From Candidatus Woesearchaeota archaeon (GTDB lineage: Archaea; Nanobdellota; Nanobdellia; Woesearchaeales; GW2011-AR15): DNA of 64,000 nt. Of this stretch, positions 24,239 through 60,077 are shown piece after piece. The notes under the pieces were generated by a model, which saw only the letters and a program-made list of their open reading frames with translations, had not been told where the DNA came from and did not search any database. The stretch covers positions 18,293-82,292 of the forward strand of contig WJJD01000058.1 in NCBI GenBank assembly GCA_014729915.1, written 5' to 3'. Every line of letters starts with the position of its first letter. Positions within the stretch are counted from its first letter, which is position 1. A program made the translations under genes and the position numbers.

Positions 24239-24348
24239 TTTCATACAAAAAATGTGCAGAAGATAATTTTCTGAATTTTTCAGGAAGTCTAAACTTATCT
24301 TCTGCACCATTCCATCAGGGAAAAATTCAGAAAACAAGCATTTTTTGT

Positions 24349-33560: not shown

Positions 33561-33561
33561 A

Positions 33562-34506
33562 ATGAAAAAAAATAAATTCAATAAAAAAACTTTAATGCTT
33601 ACGATAGGTCTGCTTATCTGCTTTATCTTTTTATTCTCCTGGCTTTCCTTATTAAAGATTCCAAAAGCAACAAGTTATCTAGGGGCTGATATAAACCAGA
33701 CACTAAATACAACTGTAAATATTACAAATGCACAGCCAGAAGTAAGAACCGTTGCAATGGATTCTCCTATTGATCTTGAGGCATACGGAAACAGAACAGT
33801 GTACTGCAATACAACTGTTTTTGACTGGGATAATGACACCCTTACTGTAAATGCCAGCTTTTACATTGAGGGCCTTACAGATCCATTTTCCTCTGTAGAC
33901 AATAACAATAAGTATGATAATGTAACCTGCACCAGAACAAGTCCGCAGGACAGGGAAATGAATTATACCTGTACAGTTGACATGACTTATTACACTGACA
34001 ACTCTTCGCAATGGAGATGCAATGTAACAGCAAAGGATGATGATAATGCAACTCACACCAATGTTTCGGATTATGCAGTAATAAATCCCCTGACAGCAAT
34101 CTATGTTCCCGGAGTCCTTGATTTCGGGGAGCTTGCAGTAAACGATATATCTGATGATAAATTGGCAAATATAACAAATGCAGGGAATAGGAATATCAGC
34201 ATTTATGTTGAGGGATGGGGTGCAGAAAAAGGAGACGGGCTTGCTATGAACTGTTCTTATGGTTCAATTGATTCAAGCTATGAAAGATATAATCATACAC
34301 AGTCCGGATTGAGCTGGGAAACTGAATTAAAGGAAGTTACAAATGAATCTGTAAGGATTGATGGTTTTACAGTATTTCACAGGTTTGATGATTCTTCTTC
34401 CTCTGGGTCAACAAATTCAACCTACTGGAAATTAAAGATTCCGGCTTTTGCAGGTGGTATTTGCAATGGAAAAATATTATTCACTGCAGAGGATGACGGA
34501 ACCTGA
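33562..34506 (+). CDS. Secreted/anchored ~315-aa protein, paralog family P2, with a 'LLKIP' motif after the N-terminal hydrophobic segment and a C-terminus of ...GGICNGKILFTAEDDGT. I start it at 33562 rather than the track's 33538.
   Basis: The ATG at 33562 immediately follows the upstream stop at 33558-33560 and yields 'MKKNKFNKKTLMLTIGLLICFIFLFSWLSLLKIP'. The protein aligns over its full length with the product of 54872..55780 and with the C-terminal ~300 aa of the product of 56694..60077: 'NQTLNTTVNITNA.PEV', 'PLTAIY[VI]P', 'NITNAGN', 'YWKL[KE]IP'. Confidence 0.7.
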   Translation: MKKNKFNKKTLMLTIGLLICFIFLFSWLSLLKIPKATSYLGADINQTLNTTVNITNAQPEVRTVAMDSPIDLEAYGNRTVYCNTTVFDWDNDTLTVNASFYIEGLTDPFSSVDNNNKYDNVTCTRTSPQDREMNYTCTVDMTYYTDNSSQWRCNVTAKDDDNATHTNVSDYAVINPLTAIYVPGVLDFGELAVNDISDDKLANITNAGNRNISIYVEGWGAEKGDGLAMNCSYGSIDSSYERYNHTQSGLSWETELKEVTNESVRIDGFTVFHRFDDSSSSGSTNSTYWKLKIPAFAGGICNGKILFTAEDDGT

Positions 34507-34515
34507 TTTTTTGAA

Positions 34516-35997
34516 ATGAGAAAATTAATTCATAATTCTGTTTATTTTATTTTTATAATAATTTCGATTTTTATCCCTGTTCTGGATCTTTTTAATATCC
34601 TTCCTGGAGATATAAGTCTCTTATCTAAAATATTGAATTGGATTCTTATAGGAATATTGGTATATCATTTAAGTTTTATAAAAGTTCTTTTTGGAAAAAA
34701 ACAGTATAAAAAAATAAAAGATTTAAAAATAAAATATTATATTCTGGACATAGCAGTCCTCCTGAGTTTCTATATGTTTAATATTTCTGATATAATTTCT
34801 TTTGTCTTAAACCATAAAAAAGAGTTTTTCTATTTTTCCAGGTTTGCCGGAATTATCTCAGGAAATTATATTTTTATTGAGATGTTTTTTTTTAATATTG
34901 CTGCAATTTTCCTGATTTGTGTTTCACTGGTTCTTGGTTTTAGGGTGAAATTCGGAAAGGATTCATTGATGTCTCTTCTTCATGAGGATATTTTGCCAGG
35001 GGGATTTGATAAGAGATTGTTTAGAAGCCTTTCAGTTCTTTTTGTATTGTCAGGAATCTATATAACCTATTTCAGCCTTGTTTTAGAATGGTTCTCTCTT
35101 GTTCTTGATCTTCCTTTTACTCTTGCCGGAATTTTTTTAATAATTTATACATTCAAGAACAAGCATAAGATAAAAGAAAACCAGATAGTTGAAAAATTGA
35201 CTTTTTTTTCAGAATTTTTTGAAGAAAACCTATTGGTTTTTTTTCATAAAAAAGAAAAAATAATGTTTACTTTTTCAGGTCTTTTAGTTCTTCATCTTTT
35301 CACAGATATATTTAATTTTTTACTGCCCTTTCTTACAGGAACCAGGTATAACCTATATTCCGCAATTCTCCAGAAAAACTTCTGGGTAGGAGATTTTATT
35401 ATTAAAGATTTGTCCCTTACAAATATTTTATCTATATTCTGGATTTATTTTCTAATTCTTTTTTTTTTTATCTGTCTTCTGCTTTTCCCAATATATCTTT
35501 GGTACATCTCACTGAATAAAGAAAAACTGAAAATTTCAAGATGGGCTGTTTCACTTTTCTTTTCTTCATTAGTAGTTATCTTAATAAAATCAAACATATA
35601 TTTTGATAGTCTTGGAACAAAGCTCGGACTGACAGGTGTTTATTTTTATTTTTCAAACAAGGCATCATTTCTTCTGGGACACAATTATCTCTCAATACTC
35701 ACATTAACAATCTTTGTTATGATATTTACAATGATAAGGTATCATACTTTAAAAAAAATTATTGAAATTATTGTAATCATAGCAATATTAATAGTTTTTA
35801 GTGAATATACATTGAAATTTTTCAAAAGCATCTTATTTTTTTATTTTGAATCAATTAACACATTAATTAACAATAATATGTTTTTCATACTTGTTTTCAT
35901 AATAATATTTTTTTTATGCTCAGTCATCTTTTATCTTGGTTCATATTTTGTTTTTATAAGCCAGACCATATCAACAATTAAGAGATCATATTTTTAG
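34516..35997 (+). CDS. Polytopic integral membrane protein with about 12 TM helices and unknown function, embedded in the secreted-protein operon
   Basis: 493 aa with more than 10 hydrophobic 18-25-aa segments. No catalytic motif was recognised. Its start lies 10 nt after the preceding gene. Confidence 0.65.
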   Translation: MRKLIHNSVYFIFIIISIFIPVLDLFNILPGDISLLSKILNWILIGILVYHLSFIKVLFGKKQYKKIKDLKIKYYILDIAVLLSFYMFNISDIISFVLNHKKEFFYFSRFAGIISGNYIFIEMFFFNIAAIFLICVSLVLGFRVKFGKDSLMSLLHEDILPGGFDKRLFRSLSVLFVLSGIYITYFSLVLEWFSLVLDLPFTLAGIFLIIYTFKNKHKIKENQIVEKLTFFSEFFEENLLVFFHKKEKIMFTFSGLLVLHLFTDIFNFLLPFLTGTRYNLYSAILQKNFWVGDFIIKDLSLTNILSIFWIYFLILFFFICLLLFPIYLWYISLNKEKLKISRWAVSLFFSSLVVILIKSNIYFDSLGTKLGLTGVYFYFSNKASFLLGHNYLSILTLTIFVMIFTMIRYHTLKKIIEIIVIIAILIVFSEYTLKFFKSILFFYFESINTLINNNMFFILVFIIIFFLCSVIFYLGSYFVFISQTISTIKRSYF

Positions 35998-36005
35998 AAA
36001 AATAA

Positions 36006-36731
36006 TCACGCAAGCTCAATCCAGAAAAAATAAGGAGTAGACTGCTCTCCGGGAAGATCCTTTTCAGGTACAATCATCTGGAAATCATAGTTTTTGAAAT
36101 TAAAACCCTGCTCTTCATCATGCAGAAGAGTTGTATATATAAGGTTAGTTTTATCAGTCAAAAGCACTTCCTGGAACAATGCATCTTCTGTTACTGTCTG
36201 CTGAGTATTGTTGACCCAGGTAGCAGTAGATCTGCATGTGCTGTTTTCAATATAAGTTGTGCCAACATAAAATTCCTTGTGTATTTCATATTCAAACGTG
36301 TTGTTTATGCTGTCTTCATTAGAGAAAGTATGATTCATTGCAGTCTCCTCACCAGAGATTATTGTGTGATTTGCACATTCTATGCTGTTCCAGTCCACAG
36401 AATCATTTCTTGAAGCATAGACCTCTCCTGTGACAGTTGTCAATGACCAGTCATAGATAGTATAGTTATCTGCATCATCAAGAGTGAATTTTCCTGAAAT
36501 ATTACCTACATATGCTTTCCATCTGGGATTTTGGGTCTCGCCATAAAGTATGAGGGTTGTAAACGTCCCGCCCGAAGTATTTACAAATGATGCAGGTTCA
36601 GAGTCTTTAGTCTCTGAATTGCTGTACGGAATCATGGCACCTGTAGGCTCAATTGCATAAGAGATTCTGAATAAGATTGCAAAAAAGACCAGGATAAATC
36701 CTAATATCCGGATTAATCTCTTATTTTTCAT
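36006..36731 (-). CDS. Secreted ~240-aa protein, paralog family P1, ending ...PYFFWIELA
   Basis: Signal peptide 'MKNKRLIRILGFILVFFAILFRISYA'. Core 'RWKAYVGNISGKFTLDDADNYTIYDWSLTTVTGEVYASRNDSVDWNSIECANHTII ... NLIYTTLLHDE'. Confidence 0.75.
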   Translation of the reverse strand: MKNKRLIRILGFILVFFAILFRISYAIEPTGAMIPYSNSETKDSEPASFVNTSGGTFTTLILYGETQNPRWKAYVGNISGKFTLDDADNYTIYDWSLTTVTGEVYASRNDSVDWNSIECANHTIISGEETAMNHTFSNEDSINNTFEYEIHKEFYVGTTYIENSTCRSTATWVNNTQQTVTEDALFQEVLLTDKTNLIYTTLLHDEEQGFNFKNYDFQMIVPEKDLPGEQSTPYFFWIELA

Positions 36732-45051: not shown

Positions 45052-47544
45052 ATGAAAAAATACATCTTAATATTAATTGCAATCATATTTTTGCAGATGA
45101 ATGTTTCAGCACAAATTCCGGCATACAGGGACCTTCCATTTCTTTCAACAGAATTTTACGGTACTGCAACAGTTTATGATCTTAACAGTACAGCCTTTGA
45201 AGCCGGCACAAGAATAGATGCCTATGCATATGAAACATTATGCGGTACATTTTATATAGAAAATGAAGGCTATTACGGATCATTGACCTGCAGAGCAGAC
45301 GATAATAACACTAATGAGACAGAGGGTGCACTACAGGGCCAGAATATAATATTCAGGATAGATAATCAGACAACTCTTAGCTCAGGAGATACAGTCTGGT
45401 ACCAGGGGGAATTCCAGAGGGTTGATCTTGCATTGGCTCCCGGTTGCCCGAACGGGTGGTGTGAAATAGGAGAGAGCTGCGTTAATTGTCCGGAGGACTG
45501 CGGGGTATGCCCCCCTCCGGGAGCAGGCCAAGGAGGAGAAGGAGGAGACGGGGAAGGAGGTGATTCAGGAGATTCAGATAACAGTGATGAAGAGGATGGA
45601 GGTGCCGGCGAGGATGAAGGAGATTCTGCAGCAGGTGCCGGTTCAGGTGATATCAGTTTCAGAGAAGGAAGAGATACAATGCAGAATCTTTCCATGGAAT
45701 TATGCAAAGAAGACTGGTTCTGCACTGCCTGGATTCCTGACCCCTGCCCTATTTCAGGAGAGCAGACAAGAAACTGCACAGATATCAACAATTGCAATAC
45801 AACTTTTACAAAACCAGAAGAAAAACAGAACTGCACATATGAAGGGACATGTTTTGATTATATATTAAACCAGGATGAGACAGATATTGACTGCGGGGGA
45901 AAAATTTGTGAGGGATGTGAGAATGATAAAAGATGCAAAAAAGACAGAGACTGCGTTTCGGGATTCTGCAATCCTTTTGAAGAGGTCTGCAGAACCCCTG
46001 TCTGTGATGACGGTATAAAAAACCAGGGGGAGCAGGAAATTGACTGCGGGGGTCCCTGTCCACCATGTCATCCTGAAGAGATGCCGATTCTTGAACAACC
46101 CGGAAGAATCATCCGATTTGTCGTGGCAGGATGCGGACCGTTCCCCTGGGGCATATTGATGATATCTTCAGTTGGCATATTATTATGTTATGTTCTTGGT
46201 AAAGTCTATATAAAAAGATATCAAAATAAAAGGAAATTTACCAGGCTGGATAGACTTGATAAGCTGAATAAAAAATACAGGATGGAGCGTTATCTAAACT
46301 TGTTTATTATAAATGGGATACTTGTTATGTTGTCTATTTGTTTATACTTATATTATTTCTGCGAGATCGTGGTATGGATATTTATCATGGTGATGCTTAT
46401 AATTCCTTTAATTACAGGCTTTACAATAAAGCTGCTTGTCTATGATGAAAAACGAAAACAGGAAAGATTCAGGAGACTGATAATATCGCATGAAGAAGAG
46501 TTAAGTAAAATTATCAGGTTAAAGAATACCCAGATAAATGAAATTGAAAAAGATATAATAAACAGATTAGAAAAAATAATTTTTTCAGGTTCGTTAAAAC
46601 CTGCGATGAGAGATCATCTGTCAAGGCTCCTCAAACTTATCAAAACCCACAATAAGATGGATATTTCAGATCCTGATCTTGAAAAAAATATGATAGACAA
46701 AATTGATGAGATAAAAGACAAAAATAACTCCAAAAACAAAATACTCTCACAGGCAATGGATTCTCTTAATCTGTTGAAAAAAATTTTTAATGATAAGGCC
46801 GGTCAGGAAAAGGAATTGGGAAAAGACGAGAAAATTGAAAAAAACATTGAAGAGGGAAGCCAAAATAAAGAAAATAAAGAAATGGATAATCTAAAAAAAA
46901 ACAAAACACATAATTCGGACTATTTTGATGATATTGACGAAAAAGCAGATAAACAGATACTAAAACTCGAAAAAAAACAGATGGAAAAGCAGCTAGAGCG
47001 GGAAGTGGAAAAAAGGCATACAAAAGAACTTCAAACAAAGAAAAAATATGATTATTCAAAAAAAGCAGAAAATCCATTTAAGATAATAAACACACGAATA
47101 GCAAATACAATAAATGAGCTGATAACAGACATAAAAAACATGAACGAATCAGATTATTATTTTCACAATAATGAGCTCAGGAATGACTTTTCAGAATGGA
47201 TAAGCGGAGAATTCGGGTATGGTGCACTGGCTGAAAAAATTAATCATATCAAGGCAAGACAGGATCTTCTTAAAATTCTGGAATCTTCTGGAAAGTATGT
47301 AAAAGACAAAAAAACTGGCAAAAAACTATTCAGGCTCAATAGCGGTAAAACAATAGAGACTATAGATGAATTAAAAAATGAGTTAGGGAAAATGGATGAT
47401 CAGGAATTTTATTTGTATGTGAATGAATTAAGAAATGAATTTTATTATTGGATTAAAAATAAATTGGAAAAAGATAAACTTGCTGAAAAACTAAGATATG
47501 TGAAAACAAAGAAGGAAATGATTGAAATCTTAAAAACATACTAA
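45052..47544 (+). CDS. Membrane protein with a signal peptide, a Gly/Asp/Glu-rich acidic low-complexity region, Cys-rich 'IDCGGPC' repeats, TM helices, and a Lys/Glu coiled-coil cytoplasmic tail carrying two copies of the 'HVNE-KNDFS-W'-type domain
   Basis: Signal peptide 'MKKYILILIAIIFLQMNVSA'. Acidic region 'PPPGAGQGGEGGDGEGGDSGDSDNSDEEDGGAGEDEGDSAAGAGSGD'. Cys-rich 'CFDYILNQDETDIDCGGKICEGC ... CDDGIKNQGEQEIDCGGPCPPC' and 'C.DW.C ... NNC' resembling the 24349 protein. TM segments at 'GILMISSVGILLCYVLG' and 'GILVMLSICLYLYYFCEIVVWIFIMVMLIIPLITGF'. Tail copies 'YYFHNNELRNDFSEWISGEFGYGALAEKINHIKARQDLLKIL' and 'FYLYVNELRNEFYYWIKNKLEKDKLAEKLRYVKTKKEMIEIL'. Confidence 0.75.
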   Translation: MKKYILILIAIIFLQMNVSAQIPAYRDLPFLSTEFYGTATVYDLNSTAFEAGTRIDAYAYETLCGTFYIENEGYYGSLTCRADDNNTNETEGALQGQNIIFRIDNQTTLSSGDTVWYQGEFQRVDLALAPGCPNGWCEIGESCVNCPEDCGVCPPPGAGQGGEGGDGEGGDSGDSDNSDEEDGGAGEDEGDSAAGAGSGDISFREGRDTMQNLSMELCKEDWFCTAWIPDPCPISGEQTRNCTDINNCNTTFTKPEEKQNCTYEGTCFDYILNQDETDIDCGGKICEGCENDKRCKKDRDCVSGFCNPFEEVCRTPVCDDGIKNQGEQEIDCGGPCPPCHPEEMPILEQPGRIIRFVVAGCGPFPWGILMISSVGILLCYVLGKVYIKRYQNKRKFTRLDRLDKLNKKYRMERYLNLFIINGILVMLSICLYLYYFCEIVVWIFIMVMLIIPLITGFTIKLLVYDEKRKQERFRRLIISHEEELSKIIRLKNTQINEIEKDIINRLEKIIFSGSLKPAMRDHLSRLLKLIKTHNKMDISDPDLEKNMIDKIDEIKDKNNSKNKILSQAMDSLNLLKKIFNDKAGQEKELGKDEKIEKNIEEGSQNKENKEMDNLKKNKTHNSDYFDDIDEKADKQILKLEKKQMEKQLEREVEKRHTKELQTKKKYDYSKKAENPFKIINTRIANTINELITDIKNMNESDYYFHNNELRNDFSEWISGEFGYGALAEKINHIKARQDLLKILESSGKYVKDKKTGKKLFRLNSGKTIETIDELKNELGKMDDQEFYLYVNELRNEFYYWIKNKLEKDKLAEKLRYVKTKKEMIEILKTY

Positions 47545-48269: not shown

Positions 48270-49253
48270 ATGAAACTCGCATTTGCGACCGGTCCTTATG
48301 CCCAGTCAGAGGATTCTTTATACATCTTTCTAAAAGAAGCTTTAAGCCGAAACCACAAGGTTTATCTCTTTATTTTGGATGATATTTATACAAAAGACAA
48401 TCATATTTTTGCTGACCTGATGCTGCTTTCGAAAAAAAGATTCGGCATAGACAATAATCAAAGATATAAATTTGATAAAAAAGTTCCCATGCAGCTGGGG
48501 TCAATGAACGCAGTTTTTTTAAAAAGAGATCCGCCTGTTCCTGCAGATAAACTTGAAATGATAAAAGATCTCGGCAAAAAAGTTTTTGTTGTAAATGATC
48601 CCGCAGGCATAATAAAATATAAAAGCAAGTCTTCTCTTGAAAGATTTTCAGAATTCATGCCTGAGACCTTCTTTTCAAAAGATGTCTCATTTCTTAAACA
48701 AAAAATCAATGAATTAAAAGATTGTGTACTAAAACAGGACTTCAGCTATGGTGGTCTTGGTATCCATCGTATATATGAGAAGAACAATCAATATTTTCAT
48801 AATCATCTGAAGATAAAAAATCAAAAAATACAGCTGACTCCTTTTCTTAAAAAACTGACATTAGACGGGACAAAAAAATTGACACTTGTCCGTTTCCTCA
48901 AAAATATAGACCAGGGAGATAAACGGATAATAATTCTTGACGGAAAAATTCTTGGTGCTATACTAAGAAAACCCTCAAAGGACTCATGGATATGTAATAT
49001 CACTTCAGGAGGGGTTGCGGGAAAAACAACAATTACAGAGGATGAACAAGAAATGATTAAAAAAATATCTCCTGTCCTTACGCAGGACGGAATACATATT
49101 GCAGGATTTGACACTCTGGTGGATGACAGCGGTAAAAGAGTATTATCAGAAATAAACACAACCAATGTTGGAGCGTTTCATATCCTGAACAAAACTTATA
49201 ATTTAAAACTAGAAAAGAAAATTATTGATTGGTTAGAACACGAATCTTTTTAA
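48270..49253 (+). CDS. Glutathione synthetase-like ATP-grasp ligase (GshB/RimK family)
   Basis: Alignable to E. coli GshB: 'FLKRDPPVPADKLEMIKDL' versus 'LMRKDPPFDTEF'. 'DGDKRIIILDGKILGAILRKPSKDSWICNITSGGVAGKTTITEDEQEMIKKISPVLTQDGIHIAGFDTLVDDSGKRVLSEINTTNVGAF' versus '[82 protein letters not shown]'. Confidence 0.7.
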   Translation: MKLAFATGPYAQSEDSLYIFLKEALSRNHKVYLFILDDIYTKDNHIFADLMLLSKKRFGIDNNQRYKFDKKVPMQLGSMNAVFLKRDPPVPADKLEMIKDLGKKVFVVNDPAGIIKYKSKSSLERFSEFMPETFFSKDVSFLKQKINELKDCVLKQDFSYGGLGIHRIYEKNNQYFHNHLKIKNQKIQLTPFLKKLTLDGTKKLTLVRFLKNIDQGDKRIIILDGKILGAILRKPSKDSWICNITSGGVAGKTTITEDEQEMIKKISPVLTQDGIHIAGFDTLVDDSGKRVLSEINTTNVGAFHILNKTYNLKLEKKIIDWLEHESF

Positions 49254-49461
49254 ATCTTATATTTTTCATTCTTTAACCCTCATTAAATAGAATACATTAA
49301 AATGAAGAGAAAAAAGAATGAAAAGTCAGTTCTGCTGCCTCGGATGGATTGTCTAAAAAATAATAATGAGAATATTATATATTCCTCCATAGATATATTT
49401 ATATATCAGTATAGTTTTTTATATACTAATATAAAGTAATGTAAATCAAAAGGTAAAGAAA

Positions 49462-50211
49462 ATGTGCAGAATGGTTATCGGGATCGGAAATATAGACACA
49501 AAAAAATTAATTGATGATTTCAGGTATATTGCTCAGGGAAAAAATGAGCTGCATGAAAAAAATCCATATTACGGAAAACTAATGCATGATCATGGCTGGG
49601 GTCTTGCCTACCTGAACAAAAAAAATAAATGGGTCATATATAAGTCAGTCAACCCGATATATGAGGATAAAAACCTAAAGGAATTTACAGATATCGACAC
49701 ACAGGCCTTGATAATACATGCAAGAAAAGCGACTGCGGGAAACAAGACTATACCTAATACTCAGCCTCTGTTTTTCAAAAATCAGGATCAGGAATTTTTA
49801 TTCGCCCATAACGGAACAATCAACGATCAGTTTGATATTAAAACTAAATATCTTGAATATGGAGATTCAGACACAGTAATGTGGTTCAATAAGATTCTTC
49901 TGGATGTCAACAAGGAAAATGAAGTCAGGATTGAAAAACATTTGTATTCATTAAAAAACTTCACTTCAGCAAATTTCTTTTTTGTAACTCCTGAAAAAAT
50001 CTTTGTAGGGCAGTATTACAGAAAGGATCCAAAATATCATACAATGAAATTATTTAAGGAAAATTACGGATTAATAATATCTTCAGAAATACTTCCACAT
50101 CTTAAAAGTAAAAACTGGAGTGAGATTCCCAACAGGAGCATTTTTGAGATTGATTATAAAAAAAAAAGGGCAATGGTTAAAAAACGGATTTCTCAGACAT
50201 CTTCCGTGTGA
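49462..50211 (+). CDS. Class II (Ntn-type) glutamine amidotransferase-like protein, YafJ/EgtC-like
   Basis: It starts 'MCR...', with Cys2 as the Ntn nucleophile as in YafJ/EgtC. 'HDHGWGLAY' matches the 'DGWGIA' core. The length of about 250 aa is typical. Confidence 0.6.
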   Translation: MCRMVIGIGNIDTKKLIDDFRYIAQGKNELHEKNPYYGKLMHDHGWGLAYLNKKNKWVIYKSVNPIYEDKNLKEFTDIDTQALIIHARKATAGNKTIPNTQPLFFKNQDQEFLFAHNGTINDQFDIKTKYLEYGDSDTVMWFNKILLDVNKENEVRIEKHLYSLKNFTSANFFFVTPEKIFVGQYYRKDPKYHTMKLFKENYGLIISSEILPHLKSKNWSEIPNRSIFEIDYKKKRAMVKKRISQTSSV

Positions 50212-51520
50212 TCAAGAGATTCTTGAATAGTTTATCAGAAAGTTTTATAGATAATTCCTCAGCTGTTTCCTGTGTAATTCTTTTATAATTAGTATATCCC
50301 TGTTTTTTCTTGACATAATCAAGAATCTCATCAGAGGTTGTTTTTCTTTTTTCAAGTATCTCCTTAAATTCCTGTAAAATTAATTTGTTATTATCAATTA
50401 CGTTCTTATCAAGAAAATCAACAAGGGATCCGCAATACTCTCTTATCTTCATGCTGTCAAGACCTTTAACTGCGGATTTTTTCTGGAGAACATTCCTGAG
50501 ATAATCTGCCTGGGGAACATAGAGCTTATCTGATTCTAATTTGAATGGATTTTTATTCCCGATTTTATCAGGAATTATCTTTATTTTGTTTTTATTAATA
50601 TATCTTATGAAATTTTTCAATATCCCGCACAACCCTGCAACCTTTTTAACGGAATTCATATCACATCCCCTGCTTTCGATTGTGCCGTGAGCAGTAACTT
50701 TTACAGGTTTCCATGAAGAATCAAGGATTGAAGTTCCGTATTTTGTGAATTTATTAAAAGAAACATCATGCTCATTTAACAATTTTTTCCATTCCGTACT
50801 TCTTTTCCGGATAGAATTTTTAAGTTCATTAAATTCCAGAGAATACTTATTTAATGTCCCGAAATCAGGTTGCCTTGCATAAAGCGAGTTCTCATATTCG
50901 AAAAACTCCTCTCCCCTGTATGCAATTATCCTGGAATCCTTGCCGAGATAGTTCCCCTGATAATACGGGGATGACTGCATAAAAGTTGTTATTGCTGGAT
51001 CAAGTGCAATAAAAAGATTATTTACATTAAGGACTTTATGCTTATCCCTCTCTTTTATATCAGGGTAGAAGAATTTTATATTCCTGTTAAATGTTCTTCT
51101 TGGAAGCGAATAATGATAGTGAAAACCGATGCATCTTCCGGCTGTCTTCCAGTTCTCTTTTCCAAGAATTTTTTCTTTTGCATAGTACCTGGGTTCTTCC
51201 CTCATTTCAGGGGAATTTTTTCCGGGATATGAGCCGTAGTAAAACAGGCTTAAGTCCTGTTTATCAATATCATATATCAGATTTTCAAAATCATCAAAAA
51301 AATTGCTGAATACGTGTCTTGAGGAAAGATGCGGGAATGTTGCAATCTCTAACATATTTTTTCCGCATTCTTTCTTTAATTCAGTGTTTGTCAGATTTTT
51401 TTTAAATTCTTCAAGAACTGAATCTGCTTTATTAACAATCCTGCCTTCATTATCAATAAGAAAGAATTCAAGTTCGATCCCGAATGTCCTATGGCTCGGT
51501 GGATAACTGATAGGAGTCAT
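50177..51520 (-). CDS. GCS2/YbdK-family carboxylate-amine ligase (glutamate-cysteine ligase-like amidoligase)
   Basis: N-terminal 'RTFGIELEFFLIDNEGRIV' matches YbdK/GCS2 'FTLGIEEELQLVD'. 447 aa. Convergent with, and overlapping, the 3' end of the amidotransferase gene. Confidence 0.65.
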   Translation of the reverse strand: MTPISYPPSHRTFGIELEFFLIDNEGRIVNKADSVLEEFKKNLTNTELKKECGKNMLEIATFPHLSSRHVFSNFFDDFENLIYDIDKQDLSLFYYGSYPGKNSPEMREEPRYYAKEKILGKENWKTAGRCIGFHYHYSLPRRTFNRNIKFFYPDIKERDKHKVLNVNNLFIALDPAITTFMQSSPYYQGNYLGKDSRIIAYRGEEFFEYENSLYARQPDFGTLNKYSLEFNELKNSIRKRSTEWKKLLNEHDVSFNKFTKYGTSILDSSWKPVKVTAHGTIESRGCDMNSVKKVAGLCGILKNFIRYINKNKIKIIPDKIGNKNPFKLESDKLYVPQADYLRNVLQKKSAVKGLDSMKIREYCGSLVDFLDKNVIDNNKLILQEFKEILEKRKTTSDEILDYVKKKQGYTNYKRITQETAEELSIKLSDKLFKNLLITRKMSEKSVF

Positions 51521-51803: not shown

Positions 51804-51968
51804 ATGAGCAAGGTAAAACGGGTAAACATCGAGTTAAAAGAAGACACCCATATGAAGGCAAAGGTAATTGCTGTTCTAAAGGATATAACCCTCAATGAAT
51901 TTTTTGAATCAGCTATTGAGAAATATATAGATGAAAACAAGGGTGTCTTAGAAAAGATAAAAGAATGA
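51804..51968 (+). CDS. Small (54 aa) ribbon-helix-helix/CopG-like protein, translationally coupled (ATGA) to the downstream surface protein gene. It is not in the ORF track because it is under 60 aa.
   Basis: 'MSKVKRVNIELKEDTHMKAKVIAVLKDITLNEFFESAIEKYIDENKGVLEKIKE' has a strand-helix-helix pattern. Its stop at 51966-51968 overlaps the ATG at 51965. Confidence 0.4.
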   Translation: MSKVKRVNIELKEDTHMKAKVIAVLKDITLNEFFESAIEKYIDENKGVLEKIKE

Positions 51969-54850
51969 GGAAAAATTTTTTTTTAACCGGAATTGTAATG
52001 TTTTTTCTTATTCCTGTTGCTCACTCTCTCGGATCAATTTCAACCTCAGACCTGACTCCTCGAAATGTTGATCTATGCGGAGAAAATTCCCAATATGTGA
52101 CAATCTCAGCACAGGAAATCTTAAACCTAGAAAATGAGACATTGACATCAGTAAAAGCATCTCTTTACCTGAATGAAGATGCAGGATTGAGTTATGTAAC
52201 TCCGCAGACAGTTGAACTCGGAGATATTTATGCAGACAATTACAGTTCAGTTTCTCCTTCATGGGTTTTGCAGTGTCTCTCACCAAACCAGGGAATATAC
52301 ACTGCATTCATCAACTATACATCAGCAAACAGCTATTTTGCAAGCTCAATTGATCAGGCAAACACAGTGATAACAGTATACGCACAGGATGATATAAACG
52401 GAAACATAACAATAATAGAAAAAGACTCTGAACCTAAACAACCAAGCACGGATATAATCTCAGATAATACACCAACGGTTGTTGCCAGTACAGACAGGGA
52501 TTCAATATGCAGGGGAGCAGTTGATGCTGATAAATCATATGATATCATGGATTTTGTTTTCTATGGTACAGAAAGAGATCATAATTACACTTTTACAAAT
52601 ATTATCTCAGAAGGAAAACATACAATCTATGTAAAATGCAAAGATCTTTTTGGAAAAGTGATGGAAAATTCCATGGAAATATCCTTCCAAGTTGATTCGT
52701 CAGATCCTGAAATTATTATTGAGAGCCCGTTGACAATCTCAAAAGATTATATTAATTTTCATATAACAGTAAGTGAAGAATCAGAATGCAGGTATTCCTT
52801 TTCAGAAGAATCATTTAATAGTAAGATAGGGTTTGATAACCGGGAAAAAATCTCATTTTCAAGTTTGTTAGAGGATCTTAAAAAAGGGGAAAACCCTATC
52901 TATGTTGAGTGCAGGGACATTGTCGGAAATACTGGTAAAAAAAATATAATTGTCTCGGTAGAAAGACCTCCTAGCTGTGAAATAATATTAAGTGATGAAT
53001 CTCCTGTAAAACAGGGAATATTGGAAGTAAAGCTGATTCCCTCAAAAAAATTAAGAGAAATACCTGACTTAAGCTATAGTTATACAGACACTGAAAAATT
53101 CACAAGAGAAATCTCTCTGACAGAGCACTCAGGATATTATAAGGGATTTTTGATAATAGACAACTACGAGACACCGAAAATCGGGGTTTTTGAGTTTTCA
53201 GGATATGATCTCTCGGGAAATAAAGGAACAGAAATAACAAACGGAGCAGATTTTATTGTTGACACTATAAAACCCGGAGGGATTGAAAGCATAAATTCAG
53301 GTACAGATCCTGAAAATAATATTGTATTGAAATGGTTTTATGAAGGAGAAGGAACCCAGAATTTCAATATTTACAGGTCAACAACTCCCGGAGTTACTTA
53401 TATTGATTATTATGATAAGGCAAATATCCAGGAATATACTGATGAGAATCTTAAGTCAGGCACAGAATATTATTACAGGGTTTGTGCAGTTGACAAAGCA
53501 GGAAACATAGGAGAATTATCCAAAGAAGTTTCAGCAGTAGCCCAAACAGGTTTGTCAGATGAAAAAATTCATCAGGAAGATCCGCCAAGACTATCTACAT
53601 TACAGGAATTTAATAAAACACTTAGAGAAATAGAAAGCCTGAAGATAGATATTGACTGGGCAGAGGCAAATCTTGCAGAACAAAAATCACAGGAACCTGC
53701 AGTAACAGATCTTGGCTTATATAAGAATGTAATGGGTTCACAGGAAAAAATAAAACAACTGAAAAATAAATTTGAAAAAACAAATCCATTATCAAATTCA
53801 GATCAAGAACTAAAAGAACTGATTGCAAATACAGAAAAACAGCTTGAAAACCTAAGAAAACAGACACCAGCAAAACTTGAGATAATTAAAAAAACAGAAT
53901 ATATGCAGCCTGTAGCAAAATCAGATATTGATCAGGCAGTAAGGGAAGTTACAAAGGGTCTTAATTTTACAGAAAAACAACTCAAAGAGTATAGAGAAAA
54001 AAATTATGATATACGGGAGAAGATCAGGATCTCTTCACTTGTAAAGACATTATCCATAGAATATCTTGATGAATCCGGGGATTACAGAGTATGGGTTAAT
54101 AAAAATGTCCATTATGAAGATCCTGAACCAGTTTCGGACATAAAACTAGTTGAGATAATTCCAAAGACACTCGCAGGAAACCTCGGTACAGTAAATGTCA
54201 GGACAGCTGATCATGTAATAATAAATGAGGATCCGGTCATTGCCTGGAATATTGATGAGCTGAGCTATGAGAAATTCAATATAAAATATATTGTAATAAC
54301 TCAGGACACATCTGAATCAGCAAAAAACACAAAGACAATCGGCCTATTAAAATTTGATGACATGTTAATGCAATCACCCAGTTTAATCACAGGTTTTTCA
54401 ACTACACTCACAAGGATATCACCATTCAACATCATCCAGACAATAGGAGTCTTTATAGGAATAATGCTTGTAATCAGCCTGTTTATGTATTATCTTGCAG
54501 CAATCAAAGAGATAGATATAGGAGGCAGATACCTGGACAGGATAAAAAATTTCAGAAAAGAACAAAGACAGCAAATAAAACCTGTCTCAATGAGAAATTA
54601 TTCTTTATTGACATCACCTGAACAATATTTCTATCTTGCAAACGGAGATGTCATAAGAAGCTTAGGAGAGTTTTTTAATATGCTTGAAGAGATGGGTGAT
54701 TCAATATTTTATACTCATGTAAATGAACACAAAAATGATTTTTCAAATTGGCTAAGATCAGTATTTAGATTAGATGATGTAGCAGAAAAGATTCAATACA
54801 GCAAATCAAAAAAAGAGATGATAAAGATCTTAGAACAGTACAAAAGATAA
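51965..54850 (+). CDS. Type I membrane surface protein of 961 aa: a signal peptide, Ig-like domains and a fibronectin type III domain, an extracellular coiled-coil, one TM helix, and the cytoplasmic 'HVNE-KNDFS-W' C-terminal domain
   Basis: Signal peptide 'MRKNFFLTGIVMFFLIPVAHS'. FN3 'NIVLKWFYEGEGTQNFNIYRSTTPGVTYIDYYD ... SGTEYYYRVCAVDKAGNIGELS'. TM 'IIQTIGVFIGIMLVISLFMYYLAAI'. C-terminus 'YFYLANGDVIRSLGEFFNMLEEMGDSIFYTHVNEHKNDFSNWLRSVFRLDDVAEKIQYSKSKKEMIKILEQYKR'. Confidence 0.8.
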   Translation: MRKNFFLTGIVMFFLIPVAHSLGSISTSDLTPRNVDLCGENSQYVTISAQEILNLENETLTSVKASLYLNEDAGLSYVTPQTVELGDIYADNYSSVSPSWVLQCLSPNQGIYTAFINYTSANSYFASSIDQANTVITVYAQDDINGNITIIEKDSEPKQPSTDIISDNTPTVVASTDRDSICRGAVDADKSYDIMDFVFYGTERDHNYTFTNIISEGKHTIYVKCKDLFGKVMENSMEISFQVDSSDPEIIIESPLTISKDYINFHITVSEESECRYSFSEESFNSKIGFDNREKISFSSLLEDLKKGENPIYVECRDIVGNTGKKNIIVSVERPPSCEIILSDESPVKQGILEVKLIPSKKLREIPDLSYSYTDTEKFTREISLTEHSGYYKGFLIIDNYETPKIGVFEFSGYDLSGNKGTEITNGADFIVDTIKPGGIESINSGTDPENNIVLKWFYEGEGTQNFNIYRSTTPGVTYIDYYDKANIQEYTDENLKSGTEYYYRVCAVDKAGNIGELSKEVSAVAQTGLSDEKIHQEDPPRLSTLQEFNKTLREIESLKIDIDWAEANLAEQKSQEPAVTDLGLYKNVMGSQEKIKQLKNKFEKTNPLSNSDQELKELIANTEKQLENLRKQTPAKLEIIKKTEYMQPVAKSDIDQAVREVTKGLNFTEKQLKEYREKNYDIREKIRISSLVKTLSIEYLDESGDYRVWVNKNVHYEDPEPVSDIKLVEIIPKTLAGNLGTVNVRTADHVIINEDPVIAWNIDELSYEKFNIKYIVITQDTSESAKNTKTIGLLKFDDMLMQSPSLITGFSTTLTRISPFNIIQTIGVFIGIMLVISLFMYYLAAIKEIDIGGRYLDRIKNFRKEQRQQIKPVSMRNYSLLTSPEQYFYLANGDVIRSLGEFFNMLEEMGDSIFYTHVNEHKNDFSNWLRSVFRLDDVAEKIQYSKSKKEMIKILEQYKR

Positions 54851-54871: not shown

Positions 54872-55780
54872 ATGAAAAAAGAAAAAATAGGAACATATAG
54901 GGGGTTGGTTTTTTTATTTTGTTTATTTGTTATGTGGATATATTTGCTGAAAATTCCGGTAATTTCAGCGCAGGCAGATGGAAACCAGACATTGAACACA
55001 ACAGTGAATATAACAAATGCAGCACCTGAAGTAAAAGACATAAGATGTCCCGCAGCAGTTGATCTTGAGGCATATGGAAATAAGACAGTCCAGTGCAATG
55101 TGACAGTATTTGATTACGACAACAACACAAACATAGTCAATGCTACATTTTATTTTAATACTGTAGCAGCAGAAGATCCGGACAATAAGCTCAACCACTA
55201 TACAAACAGTTCATGTGTGAATGAATCACCTCAGGATAACGAGATGAACTTTTCATGCACGTTTGATCTGATTTATTTTGCAAATAACGGTTCCTGGTAT
55301 TCAAATGCAACCGCTTATGATGACCAGGATGCTTCAGGAAATAACATCTCTGATTCCATTAACGTAAACCCATTGACAGCCATTTACATACCGACTGATA
55401 CAGTTCTTGATTTCGGAGAGCTCGAGACAGGACAGACTTCGGGAGATAAAGAAGCAAACATCACAAACGCAGGAAACATCCAGATCAACATAAGTGTTCA
55501 GGGATGGGCAAATACTAAGGGAGATGATCTTGCGATGGATTGTGAATATGGAACTATTGACAGGACATATGAAAAATATGCAGTTACGTCAGGAGAATTA
55601 TTTTCAGCAATGACGGAGCTTCCATTAAATGACGAGATGATTGCAGGCTTGTTTATTGAAAGGCAGACAGCAGACGGATCATTAAAAACAAATACAACTT
55701 ATTGGAAACTGGAGATTCCGCCGAGTGCCGGCGGGATATGCGAGGGAAAACTGTTGTTTACAGCAAGTGCAAAAGAATAG
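54872..55780 (+). CDS. Secreted/anchored ~300-aa protein, paralog family P2, ending ...GGICEGKLLFTASAKE
   Basis: '...WIYLLKIPVISAQADGNQTLNTTVNITNAAPEV ... PLTAIYIPTDTVLDFGELE ... NITNAGNIQINISVQGW ... DDLAMDCEYGTID ... TYWKLEIPPSAGGICEGKLLFTA' is collinear with the product of 33562..34506. Confidence 0.7.
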   Translation: MKKEKIGTYRGLVFLFCLFVMWIYLLKIPVISAQADGNQTLNTTVNITNAAPEVKDIRCPAAVDLEAYGNKTVQCNVTVFDYDNNTNIVNATFYFNTVAAEDPDNKLNHYTNSSCVNESPQDNEMNFSCTFDLIYFANNGSWYSNATAYDDQDASGNNISDSINVNPLTAIYIPTDTVLDFGELETGQTSGDKEANITNAGNIQINISVQGWANTKGDDLAMDCEYGTIDRTYEKYAVTSGELFSAMTELPLNDEMIAGLFIERQTADGSLKTNTTYWKLEIPPSAGGICEGKLLFTASAKE

Positions 55781-56562: not shown

Positions 56563-56693
56563 GCGACCACCAATAAGTATTATAAAATCAAAGATTAAAA
56601 ATTTTTTGAAAATCTAACAAAAAGGTTTAAATAGAAAAAATCTTTTATCAATCTTCGGGGGAATAAAAAATTCATATTATAAAAAGAGGTATT

Positions 56694-59600
56694 TTGCTGA
56701 ACAAAAGCTCTGTTCTTAAGAGATCGAAATTTTCACTTATTCTCCTTGTTTTAATAGTATTAATGTTATTTTCGGGATCAGTAAAATCAACCTCAGTCAA
56801 CACAAATATTAAAGAAAATAATCAGTTTAACATAAACGCTATCTCTACAGGGAAAACTTATTTTTTATTTGAAAAAGAAAATTATATTTTAAAAATATGG
56901 GCAAACGGAACAAGGAGATGGTATCCCGGAAAAGATCCTGGATCATATATTGAGTTCGGTACTCCTGAAACTAGGTTTGAGAATGGAGAATGGAGAAAAA
57001 TATCCCTAAAACATCCTGTTAAAAAACCCGGATCCATTGAGTGGAATCTTACAGATTATAAGATACGGTATGACATTTTAAGAAATAAAATAAAATTTAA
57101 CATTCGAATAAAAAATAATAATACAGGAAATATTTTGAGATGGAAAATCAATTCCCGAAATCTTTTAATCATAGAAAATGATAATTTTTGGAACCTTTTC
57201 AGCAAATCAGACAGCAGAAACGCCGGGAAAATAACTCATCCTTTTATCTGGAGGGATAAATCAGGCGAACTTGAAAATTATCGGTATCTTAAACTGAAAA
57301 AAATAGGGAATCATGCATATATGAATTTTGATTTGCAGGGATTACAATACCCTGTTGATATTGATCCTACTTTTGAGACCCAGCCTGCCCCTTCAGACGG
57401 GAAAGATACCTATCTTTCAAGTGATAATGCAGATACAAATTACGGCTCAAATGAATTTGATTATGCAATAGGCAGAGAAGGAGCAACCAATGTGATGCGT
57501 GCATTGATAGAATTTAATTTATCCAATATTTCGTCCGGTTATACATGCAGTAATGCAACTTTATCTTTGTATTGCAATTATCTTGATGCAAATGCATATA
57601 ATTCACTGGTTGGAGTTTATGAATTAAGGAGCGGGAGATCTACCTGGGTTGAGGGAGAGGCAACATGGAATGATTATGCAAGCGGATCATCCTGGACAAC
57701 AGGTGGTGCTGATTCGACAACAGAGGACCGGCTTGCTGCGAGTATAGCAACATTCAATGCTCCCGCCTCAAGCGGTAACTGGATAAATATTTCCTTAAAT
57801 ACCACAGAGGTTGAGGACTGGTTCGGAGACTCAAATGAGAATTACGGATTAATCATTATTATGGATGATGAAACAACAGGCTGGACAAAAGTTACATTCA
57901 GGTCATCTGATTATACCTCAGATACCTCCCTGCGCCCGAAACTGGTTGTTGATTATTCAGAATCCACGGGTAATTCCGTCCCTGTAATTAACCAGGTACA
58001 ATGTGAAATCAATTCCAGTTCAAATTGGCATGCATGTAGTGATGCTTCTGTCTGGGATTCTGAAATACTGCAGGTCAGAGTCAACTGCACAGATACAGAC
58101 AGCCAAATATTAAATGTAACCTACAACCTTTCAAACGTTGCTGATTCAGATACGAAATTCAGTTCTCTTAACGCGACCTCTTCTTCAGGAGACTGGTGGT
58201 ATTTTGATAATTCTGATTACCTTGTACAGGATTCGGGATTATTTAATCTTGATATTGTGTGCAATGACGGCACAGGTTCAGCACAGGAAACTATTGAGTG
58301 GATAACCCCCTGGGGAATCCTGAATACTTCATGGAGAGAACCGGTGGACAGTACAAATGTTTCAAAAAACAGGTTTACAACATTTAGCTCTCTTACAGAA
58401 TGTTTTCTGGGAGAATGCGGTGACGTGAATATCACTCTTGATCCTATTGTCGAAAAGCAGCCGGATGCTGCTGAAGGAAAGGATACGCAGTTGTCAGGCA
58501 GCAATGCTGATACAAATTATGGTTCAGCTGAATTTAGTTATTCAATCGGAGTGAATGGTGCTTCAGATATTTTAAGGGCACTCATAGAATTCAATCTTTC
58601 TGAAATACCTTCTGGATCTACATGTAATCAGGCAACACTTTCCTTATACAGCAATTATCTTGATGCAAATGCATATAATGATCCCGGCAAAATTTATGAA
58701 TTAAGAAGCGGGAGATCTGCCTGGGTTGAGGGAGAGGCAACATGGAATGATTATGCAAGCGGATCATCCTGGACAACAGGTGGTGCTGATTCGGTAACAG
58801 AGGACCGGCTTGTTGCGAGTATAGCAACATTCAATGCTCCCGCCTCAAGCGGTAACTGGGTAAATATTTCCTTAAATACCACAGATGTTGAGGACTGGTT
58901 CGGGGACTCAAATGAGAATTACGGATTAATCATTATTATGGATGATGAAACAACAGGCTGGACAAAGGTCTCTTTCAGGCCTTCAGATTATGCCGCAGAT
59001 GTTTCTTTAAGACCAAAAATTACTATTAATTATACTGAAGCAGCAGATTCAGGGATACAGGATAAAGGGTTTGCAATCAATACTACTCCGGGAGCTGTGC
59101 CTTTCTGGACATCTTCCTCAAATCCTCAACAATGTGTTAATTTAAAACCAGGTGATGCATGCCAGAAAAGCTGGGATGTGAATGCCACGGGAAAGATTGG
59201 AGATACATATAGGTTTTATGTGATCTCTGATCCGACAACATATTCAGCAAATATTGATACAAATGAGTCAGACAGGATAAACATAACAATTGAGTCAGAG
59301 CCTGAGCAAAATTCTGTACCTTGGGTATCAAGTTTGGATATTGAAAATCCTGTAAACCTTTTGGCAGCATCAAACAAGACAGTATACTGTCAGGGAACAA
59401 TCAATGATGCTGACGGGCATTCAGATATCACAGGAGTTAATGCTACTTTATTTAATTCTGGCCCGGGATTAACAGAATCAAGTCCTGACAACAGGAGTTC
59501 TCATTATACAAATACTTCATGCAGCCTGTTTAATCAGGCAGGCAACTCTCTTGATTTTAATTGTACTTTTGATCTTTCTTATTTTGCAGTAAACGGAACA

Positions 59601-60077
59601 TGGCAATGCAATGTCACTGTAATTGATTCAGAAAATGCAAAAAATTCTTCAAAACAGGCTGCAACTATAAACGAGCTTCTGGCAATCTCGATTGATCCAG
59701 ATGTTGTTGATTACGGCGATATGAATATTAATGAGGAATCAGATGATTTTTATGTAAATTTTACAAATTACGGGAATGTGATTCTTGATCTAGAGATGTT
59801 CGGATATGCAGACGCAGAAGAAGATAATCTTTCTATGGATTGTGATACTGGCTCAATTTCAAATTATTATCAGAGATATGCATTAACAGAGCTTAATCTG
59901 TGGCAGGACATGTCTGCTTTATACGGAAAAACAAATCCTGTAAATCTTGATTTTAATCTTTCAGCCGGAAACCAGGAGCAGGAATCTGTTGATTCACTCT
60001 ATTGGAAATTAAAGATTCCCTATAATACAAAAGGCACCTGCAGCGGAAAGATAGTATTCACAGCAGTGAGCGGGTGA
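56694..60077 (+). CDS. Secreted 1,127-aa mosaic surface protein: a signal peptide; two tandem ~360-aa domains possibly related to the DNRLRE/CBM96 type ('W.E..ATWN'); Ig-like modules shared with the giant protein; and a C-terminal P2-family module ending ...GKIVFTAVSG
   Basis: Signal peptide 'MLNKSSVLKRSKFSLILLVLIVLMLFSGSVKS'. The duplicated block 'GKDT.LS..NADTNYGS.EF.Y.IG..GA...MRALIEFNLS ... ATLSLY.NYLDANAYN ... YELRSGRS.WVEGEATWNDYASGSSWTTGGADS.TEDRL.ASIATFNAPASSGNW.NISLNTT.VEDWFGDSNENYGLIIIMDDETTGWTKV.FR.SDY' occurs twice. 'CEINSSSNWHACSD ... WITPWGILNTSW ... ECFLGECGDVNITLDP' resembles giant-protein modules. The C-terminal 300 aa are collinear with the P2 proteins. Confidence 0.8.
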   Translation: MLNKSSVLKRSKFSLILLVLIVLMLFSGSVKSTSVNTNIKENNQFNINAISTGKTYFLFEKENYILKIWANGTRRWYPGKDPGSYIEFGTPETRFENGEWRKISLKHPVKKPGSIEWNLTDYKIRYDILRNKIKFNIRIKNNNTGNILRWKINSRNLLIIENDNFWNLFSKSDSRNAGKITHPFIWRDKSGELENYRYLKLKKIGNHAYMNFDLQGLQYPVDIDPTFETQPAPSDGKDTYLSSDNADTNYGSNEFDYAIGREGATNVMRALIEFNLSNISSGYTCSNATLSLYCNYLDANAYNSLVGVYELRSGRSTWVEGEATWNDYASGSSWTTGGADSTTEDRLAASIATFNAPASSGNWINISLNTTEVEDWFGDSNENYGLIIIMDDETTGWTKVTFRSSDYTSDTSLRPKLVVDYSESTGNSVPVINQVQCEINSSSNWHACSDASVWDSEILQVRVNCTDTDSQILNVTYNLSNVADSDTKFSSLNATSSSGDWWYFDNSDYLVQDSGLFNLDIVCNDGTGSAQETIEWITPWGILNTSWREPVDSTNVSKNRFTTFSSLTECFLGECGDVNITLDPIVEKQPDAAEGKDTQLSGSNADTNYGSAEFSYSIGVNGASDILRALIEFNLSEIPSGSTCNQATLSLYSNYLDANAYNDPGKIYELRSGRSAWVEGEATWNDYASGSSWTTGGADSVTEDRLVASIATFNAPASSGNWVNISLNTTDVEDWFGDSNENYGLIIIMDDETTGWTKVSFRPSDYAADVSLRPKITINYTEAADSGIQDKGFAINTTPGAVPFWTSSSNPQQCVNLKPGDACQKSWDVNATGKIGDTYRFYVISDPTTYSANIDTNESDRINITIESEPEQNSVPWVSSLDIENPVNLLAASNKTVYCQGTINDADGHSDITGVNATLFNSGPGLTESSPDNRSSHYTNTSCSLFNQAGNSLDFNCTFDLSYFAVNGTWQCNVTVIDSENAKNSSKQAATINELLAISIDPDVVDYGDMNINEESDDFYVNFTNYGNVILDLEMFGYADAEEDNLSMDCDTGSISNYYQRYALTELNLWQDMSALYGKTNPVNLDFNLSAGNQEQESVDSLYWKLKIPYNTKGTCSGKIVFTAVSG
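57361..59040 (+). repeat. Tandem intragenic duplication (2 x ~1.08 kb) with a ~270-nt core that is about 97% identical at nucleotide level
   Basis: nt ~57615-57890 versus ~58692-58967 (offset 1077): 'ggagcgggagatctacctgggttgagggagaggcaacatggaatgattatgcaagcggatcatcctggacaacaggtggtgctgattcg...' is nearly identical in both copies. The flanks have diverged. Confidence 0.75.

Follow-up and report, generated by a model that had tools for sequence, protein, structure and literature searches.

A gene for a multidomain, putative surface protein of an uncultured archaeon very probably combines an old pair of domains with a recent, partial ectopic gene conversion between them. The gene lies at positions 56694–60077 (plus strand) of a 64-kb stretch, called the window below and used for all position numbers, from one metagenome-assembled contig of Candidatus Woesearchaeota (WJJD01000058.1, assembly GCA_014729915.1). 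It encodes 1,127 amino acids (aa) and holds two domains of the DNRLRE/CBM96 type, which are almost identical at the DNA level over 274 nucleotides (nt) and strongly diverged on both sides of that tract. A first-pass annotation of this DNA had described a recent tandem duplication; the analysis replaces that reading by one of old paralogous modules carrying what is very probably a single recent conversion tract. The family assignment is already present in the NCBI annotation, and since both the process and the domain family are known, the case is of low general interest, but the locus offers a tidy example of homologous recombination between intragenic repeats in a DPANN archaeon.

A sharply bounded tract within two diverged domains

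The two copies form a direct repeat inside one open reading frame (ORF), 1,077 nt apart, as the first-pass annotation had reported; the offset is exactly 359 codons, and the copies are in the same frame. Its estimate of ~97% identity over ~270 nt was reproduced by nucleotide comparison: the core at 57616–57889 differs from 58693–58966 at 8 of 274 nt (97.1% identity), with seven transitions and one transversion, and the copies share exact runs of 74, 62, and 46 nt. The motif strings it quoted are present in both copies, and the flanks are diverged as it had said. In the homologous parts outside the core (57363–57615 plus 57890–57953, compared with their partners at +1077), 110 differences were counted over 317 nt, or ~65% identity. 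Compared position by position at the +1077 offset, identity is at a background of ~23% before 57350 and after 57980, ~55–77% over 57350–57615 and 57890–57980, and 90–100% over 57616–57889. The codon alignment of the two copies contains no gaps.

Other parts of the first-pass description had to be changed. The ~360 aa given as the domain length is the period of the repeat (359 aa); the homologous unit, from the hidden Markov model (HMM) envelopes at aa 223–427 and aa 582–786, is ~200 aa long. The arrangement is not strictly tandem, as the copies are separated by an unrelated module of 154 aa (aa 428–581) that has no similarity to the sequence downstream of copy 2. The high-identity stretch, said to be central, instead occupies the C-terminal half of the domain. 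No third copy of the repeat was found in the window by blastn and tblastn. The elements of the domain pair are as follows.

56694–60077, plus strand: ORF of 1,127 aa from a TTG start (sequence and NCBI record)
57360–57974, plus strand: DNRLRE/CBM96 domain copy 1, aa 223–427 (NF033679, PF06848, PF24517, AlphaFold2 model, Foldseek)
57363–57573, plus strand: diverged N-terminal part of copy 1, aligned with ligand-groove residues of the CBM96 founder; proportion of synonymous differences (pS) 0.76 and nonsynonymous divergence (dN) 0.29 against copy 2
57574–57602, plus strand: 29-nt block identical to 58651–58679, encoding NYLDANAYN (nine of nine codons identical)
57603–57615, plus strand: hyperdivergent 13-nt patch with 10 differences (SLVGV against DPGKI), in a low-confidence hairpin loop
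57616–57889, plus strand: putative conversion tract on the copy 1 side, aa 308–399 (8 differences in 274 nt; maximum chi-square breakpoints; synonymous divergence, dS, 0.052)
58437–59051, plus strand: DNRLRE/CBM96 domain copy 2, aa 582–786 (NF033679, PF06848, PF24517)
58693–58966, plus strand: putative conversion tract on the copy 2 side, partner of 57616–57889

The borders of the tract were placed at 57616 and 57889 by a maximum chi-square scan for two breakpoints. The chi-square was 92.9; when the variable sites were permuted 200 times, it averaged 8.0 and never exceeded 21.9. By the Nei-Gojobori method, the tract has a pS of 0.05, a dS of 0.052, and a dN of 0.029, with six nonsynonymous and three synonymous differences. 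The left flank has a pS of 0.69 and a dN of 0.285, the right flank a pS of 0.64 and a dN of 0.33, and both are at or near synonymous saturation. Where the two copies encode the same residue (Met and Trp excluded), the codon is also the same at 76 of 79 positions in the tract (96%) and at 25 of 58 in the flanks (43%; Fisher p = 1e-12).

As a yardstick for protein constraint, the divergence between the copies was divided by their divergence from the nearest outside domain, residues 1801–2005 of protein P0035, which is 55–70% identical to the copies at the protein level. The ratio was 0.15 in the tract (bootstrap 95% interval 0.03–0.32) and 0.77 in the flanks (0.58–0.97). A second outgroup, P0074, gave 0.09 and 0.67, respectively. 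Given the synonymous contrast and the outgroup-normalized values of 0.15 against 0.77, protein constraint alone does not explain the near-identity, which reflects the DNA history of the tract and not stronger constraint on its protein. At the five amino-acid differences between the tracts, the outgroup states are mixed. G+C content at third codon positions (GC3) is 0.40 in the tract and 0.31 for the ORF, an excess within sampling noise for 91 codons; GC-biased conversion or a foreign origin of the tract was rejected on this ground.

Just upstream of the tract, the 29-nt identical block has a probability of ~5e-4 at the codon-identity rate of the flanks, rising to as much as ~1e-2 when codon bias is allowed for. 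Either the conversion was patchy and the block is a detached piece of its tract, or codon bias helped the match to arise by coincidence. The hairpin loop that contains the 13-nt patch is modeled with low confidence (predicted local distance difference test score, pLDDT, <50 at domain residues 84–86) and is indel-rich in the family alignment.

Family and fold of the two domains

Both copies are DNRLRE/CBM96-type domains. The first-pass annotation had made this assignment tentatively, and profile searches bore it out. The NCBIfam model NF033679 (DNRLRE_dom; cutoff 34) matched copy 1 with 88.0 bits (model positions 1–163 of 164), copy 2 with 86.4 bits (1–164 of 164), and the whole protein with 148.1 bits in two stretches. 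Pfam PF06848 (Disaggr_repeat; gathering threshold 33.9) gave 44.3 bits for copy 1 (model 7–179 of 179) and 40.0 bits for copy 2 (4–179 of 179), and PF24517 (CBM96; cutoff 26) gave 42.0 bits (model 9–102 of 164) and 35.0 bits (9–95 of 164), its matches covering only the N-terminal ~100 model positions. A family profile built from both copies and 15 homologues matched the solved structures 7VBO (E 7.7e-11) and 8WAB (E 5e-10). These were also the top Foldseek matches, each with probability 1.0, to the AlphaFold2 model of copy 1 (pLDDT 82.5), which has the β-sandwich fold of the CBM96 founder.

DNRLRE (Disaggr_repeat) was described as a domain of ~200 aa that occurs once or several times in cell-surface proteins of Methanosarcina and in disaggregatase (Adindla et al. 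2004, PMC2447325). The domains examined here resemble that description in their length and in passing NF033679 and PF06848 over the full length of the models. They also sit in an archaeal surface-type protein, as judged from a signal-like N terminus and Ig-like partner modules. They differ from the Methanosarcina domains in their DPANN host, in their partner modules, and in the absence of the literal motif. The string DNRLRE does not occur in the 1,127-aa protein and is not a membership criterion of NF033679. The nearest strings, EDRLAA (aa 344–349) and EDRLVA (aa 703–708), may be its equivalents.

Two solved structures allow the comparison to be extended to ligand binding. 7VBO is the TM6-N4 module of alginate lyase Dp0100 from Defluviitalea phaphyphila, the founding member of CBM96, in which K10, K22, K25, K27, K31, and R36 were identified as alginate-binding residues by mutagenesis (PMC9971899). 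The Woesearchaeota domains share with it the sequence family (profile match and PF24517), the β-sandwich (template modeling score, TM, 0.57–0.64), and the motifs D-T-Y, T-N-Y-G, and W-x-E-x-x-x-T-W-N. The founder is attached to a polysaccharide lyase, whereas no catalytic domain was detected in the 1,127-aa protein. Nor is the basic groove set of 7VBO (K10, K22, K25, K27, K31, R36, and Y159), a feature of specificity and not of family membership, reproduced in the copies: the positions opposite its lysines are of the S, E, Y, A/I, and E/G type in both, and the Arg of R-A-L-I-E-F may be the only equivalent of R36. Since most of the 7VBO lysines are not conserved in either copy, alginate is unlikely as the ligand, which probably differs. 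The best structural match was 8WAB (E 3e-7, TM 0.60–0.72), a CBM that binds chondroitin sulfate, part of a chondroitinase and deposited under the name "DNRLRE domain-containing protein." It shares only 22% sequence identity and belongs to an enzyme; no paper on its binding site was found in the literature searched. The solved relatives bind acidic polysaccharides (alginate and chondroitin sulfate), and the family and context make a secreted or cell-surface protein for glycan binding or adhesion the most likely role for the Woesearchaeota product.

The tract has a definite position on this fold. Starting in the strands with Y-E-L-R-S and ending at G-W-T-K, with the family motif W-V-E-G-E-A-T-W-N in between, it comprises the C-terminal scaffold half of the sandwich minus the last strands. 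To this half belongs the loop aligned with the structural Ca2+ site of 7VBO, and the tract covers the most conserved protein motif of the family, W-x-E-x-x-A-T-W-N. The alginate-binding residues K10–R36 of 7VBO (chain numbering offset 16) align with aa ~237–275, in the left flank, which is diverged between the copies. This N-terminal, groove-aligned part stays diverged at the protein level (dN 0.29).

Origin of the tract

The proposed history has two steps. The DNRLRE/CBM96 modules would be old paralogues within one gene, the duplication being regarded as old because synonymous sites in the flanks are saturated. A recent, nonreciprocal homologous recombination event (intragenic ectopic gene conversion) would then have copied ~274 nt of one module onto the other, or up to 316 nt if the detached 29-nt block is included. 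It would have covered the C-terminal scaffold half with W-x-E-x-x-A-T-W-N, and the eight point differences, which look like ordinary point mutation, would have arisen since. Support for conversion comes from the sharp breakpoints, the tract dS of 0.05, and the homogenized synonymous sites between old flanks. Repeats within one gene have been described as evolving in concert and exchanging sequence by ectopic gene conversion in yeast FLO adhesins (PMC3512402) and in spidroins (PMC3933166). The sharp-bordered, near-identical patch within older paralogous repeats and its homogenized synonymous sites resemble those cases; in the present one, the archaeon is uncultured, the copies number just two and are not adjacent, and there is a single partial tract. 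No homogenization was seen in a relative with four CBM96 copies (P0002, locus L001), whose repeats are 60–76% identical. Gene conversion is also known in bacteria generally.

Several observations weigh against this history. A segment-wise nearest-neighbor test placed the copies as mutual nearest relatives in the tract and in the flanks, so that depth differs and topology does not; run with homologues that share the domain context of copy 1 or copy 2, it yielded neither a discordant topology nor a donor direction. One simple tract also fails to account for the hyperdivergent 13 nt that separate it from the 29-nt block. No orthologue of the same architecture, and with it no preconversion state, was found in any collection searched, the nearest matches being single domains at ~40–55% identity. 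The sequence rests on a single metagenome-assembled contig. With regard to function, the copies lack most of the basic residues with which the founder binds alginate.

Of the two origins that the first-pass annotation had offered, gene conversion agrees with the tract dS of 0.05 and its sharp breakpoints, and very recent duplication is contradicted by a flank pS of 0.64–0.69. The latter would require the whole domain to have been duplicated very recently and its flanks then to have diverged fast under positive selection. The copies are indeed mutually closest in every segment, and with six nonsynonymous against three synonymous differences, the tract does not have a low dN/dS. However, positive selection on the protein cannot lift synonymous divergence 13-fold, from 0.05 in the tract to the 0.64–0.76 seen in the flanks, and no tandem unit was duplicated, as what follows copy 2 bears no relation to the spacer between the copies; recent duplication is very improbable. 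Selection on the nucleotide sequence itself (RNA structure, a regulatory element, or extreme codon bias) could in principle maintain identity in a tract that spans the most conserved family motif and has a slightly higher GC3 (0.40 vs. 0.31). Within the tract, however, no Rfam match was found at E≤1, and the RNA fold z-score was −1.5. Codon identity is 96% in the tract against 43% in equally coding parts of the same domains, and P0035 has only ~70% protein identity over the tract, which argues against exceptional constraint. Such selection is highly unlikely as the cause. Diversity-generating retroelements (DGRs) occur in DPANN archaea, and a near-identical repeat pair of 100–300 nt in a surface ligand-binding protein of such an archaeon is reminiscent of their template and variable repeats. 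The mismatches, however, are not adenine-specific (of the eight, four coincide with an adenine in copy 1, one with an adenine in copy 2, and seven are plain transitions), no reverse transcriptase was found in any ORF of ≥150 aa in the window, and each repeat encodes part of one of the homologous domains. Lacking both defining features, adenine-specific mismatches and a nearby reverse transcriptase, the pair was rejected as a DGR, a reading that retains next to no probability.

An assembly or polishing artefact would have inflated the identity of the tract if reads of two copies with moderate similarity had been mixed during metagenome assembly. For this single contig, no independent assembly on record was retrieved by exact look-ups of the protein, its shorter NCBI version, and the neighboring phosphoenolpyruvate synthase, and the shared runs of 74, 62, and 46 nt could tangle a de Bruijn graph. 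Yet both copies are in frame in an intact ORF, each with its own diverged flanks, and the eight differences are spread along the tract, which indicates that the assembler resolved the copies. A mis-join in the graph would remove or repeat the 1,077 nt or exchange variants between the copies; it would not raise identity from 65% to 97% between sharp borders. An artefact is accordingly improbable. A further alternative keeps the mechanism and changes the donor: one or both copies may have been overwritten from a third DNRLRE gene that lies outside the window. Multicopy DNRLRE proteins are common, and the 64 kb of the window are all of the genome that is visible; however, no third copy was found in the window, searches of genome, metagenome, and protein collections yielded nothing near-identical, and a third donor is unlikely.

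A functional extension of this history can be considered, although taken as a whole it is rather improbable. Recurrent recombination in this lineage would homogenize the scaffold half only, and two ligand specificities would be kept, the groove-forming N-terminal part and the hairpin loop with the 13-nt patch being held different by selection. The 274-nt in-frame direct repeats would in addition permit RadA-mediated deletion, yielding a 768-aa variant with a single module. Large modular surface proteins of DPANN archaea are thought to mediate host attachment, and such a variant would give simple variation in the size or valency of a host-attachment protein in a DPANN episymbiont. The analysis shows the tract, its breakpoints, the synonymous contrast, and the family and fold; the recombination mechanism, the surface location, glycan binding, and any selective reason for the escape of the binding face from homogenization are inferred. 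Given population data, the locus could reveal how long conversion tracts are and how often repeat-mediated deletion occurs in an uncultured archaeon.

Protein architecture, gene borders, and surroundings

Relatives of the protein were sought with an exhaustive phmmer search of 1.84 billion representative proteins, which returned 6,745 matches at E≤1e-3, with word-indexed searches of 5.8 billion proteins (using the whole protein and domain 1), and with scans of genome and metagenome contigs. The modules of the protein are found again in other proteins, most of them from DPANN archaea. The remaining features of the gene are listed here.

56627–56634, plus strand: archaeal TATA-box-like TTTAAATA, upstream of the 1,127-aa gene (a candidate read off the sequence)
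56686–56690, plus strand: Shine-Dalgarno-like GAGGT, 3 nt before TTG 56694 (read off the sequence)
56694–56789, plus strand: signal-peptide-like or membrane-anchor-like N terminus (MLNKSSVLKRSKFSLILLVLIVLMLFSGSVKS; sequence inspection)
56871–57353, plus strand: N-terminal domain of unknown function, aa ~60–220 (no Pfam match)
57975–58436, plus strand: unrelated spacer module, aa 428–581 (no Pfam match)
59061–59297, plus strand: Ig-like module after copy 2, aa ~790–868 (weak Big_5 match)
59310–60074, plus strand: C-terminal two-domain β-sandwich module, aa ~873–1127 (paralogous to ORFs 54872–55780 and 33538–34506; 36% identity, E 2e-46)

In the NCBI record the product is MBD3203388.1, 1,104 aa, [quoted passage not shown] That gene model begins at ATG 56763 and drops the signal-peptide-like N terminus. 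Because GAGGT and the TTTAAATA box precede TTG 56694, the longer TTG start appears more plausible than the NCBI start.

The N-terminal domain fused to DNRLRE recurs in other DPANN proteins, in which single stretches of similarity extend over aa ~60–430 (P0065, P0075, P0084, P0107, P0117, P0132, P0146, P0158, and P0170). The spacer (aa ~425–587) is repeated up to 10 times in giant proteins of 3,000–7,000 aa elsewhere, and the Ig-like module co-occurs with spacer and DNRLRE in P0044, from a Diapherotrites metagenome-assembled genome, and in P0094, P0138, and P0167. The C-terminal module of ~255 aa is up to 53% identical to parts of Nanoarchaeota proteins and has many DPANN homologues but no Pfam family; its AlphaFold2 model (pLDDT 66) gave generic tandem Ig-like matches in Foldseek (TM 0.2–0.3). 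Modules of this type (~255–300 aa) close with YWKL.IP...G.C.GK..FTA, have Cys, Trp, and Tyr residues in conserved positions, and occur three times on the plus strand of the window. Two are stand-alone genes (33538–34506 and 54872–55780), and the third is the C terminus of the DNRLRE protein (59310–60074).

The neighboring genes encode large surface-type proteins with LamG/DUF2341, Big_13, CARDB, and DUF5752 domains. Near the edge of the window, a giant ORF (89–24238, plus strand; 8,049 aa) is made of ~2-kb modules with DUF2341 and Laminin_G_3 (ConA-like lectin), together with Big_13, CARDB, and Big_7. Its modules repeat at offsets of 2061, 2004–2016, and 12096 nt and are mosaic in identity. 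Segment 1360–2020, compared with its partner at +2061, is 82–100% identical per 60-nt window with a pS of 0.41, and the adjoining segments have a pS of 0.81–0.85; for 17660–17780 against +2013, pS is 0.24. Overall, pS in these repeats is locally reduced to 0.24–0.41 vs. 0.6–0.85 in adjoining segments, which suggests older conversion-like events in the giant ORF, and such mosaic repeats would fit active recombination among repeats in this genome. The end of the spacer (58351–58450, "...RFTTFSSLTECFLGECGDVNITLDP"), just before copy 2, is ~60% similar in nucleotide sequence to four sites in the giant ORF (975–1074, 3036–3135, 15132–15231, and 17139–17238; "...RFFNFTSKITCTGGECGYINASLDP"), and the similarity suggests a domain-end or junction element, GGECG..N..LDP, common to both ORFs.

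Other repeats lie between the giant ORF and the DNRLRE gene. The adjacent ORF 24235–26493, which has no Pfam match, contains six tandem Cys-rich repeats of 72 nt (24 aa; C.D..KNQ.E..IDCGG.C..C) at 25481–25983 (plus strand), and a further copy with 80% nucleotide identity is found at 45998–46068 (plus strand), in ORF 45052–47544. A DUF5752-like segment is present near the C terminus of three otherwise different proteins encoded on the plus strand (30492–31433, 45052–47544, and 51965–54850; E 1.7e-5, 3.4e-8, and 1.7e-3, respectively) and may be a common anchoring or sorting module of the surface proteins of this genome. An inverted repeat of 122 nt (33297–33418 and 36130–36251; 72% complementary) has its arms 2.7 kb apart, spanning ORFs 33538–34506 and 34516–35997, and probably reflects paralogous coding segments on opposite strands. 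Finally, a biosynthetic cluster at 48270–51520, unexpected beside the surface-protein genes of a reduced DPANN genome, encodes a glutathione-synthetase-like ATP-grasp protein (48270–49253), a class-II glutamine amidotransferase-like protein (49462–50211), and, on the minus strand, a GCS2 glutamate-cysteine-ligase-like protein (50177–51520).

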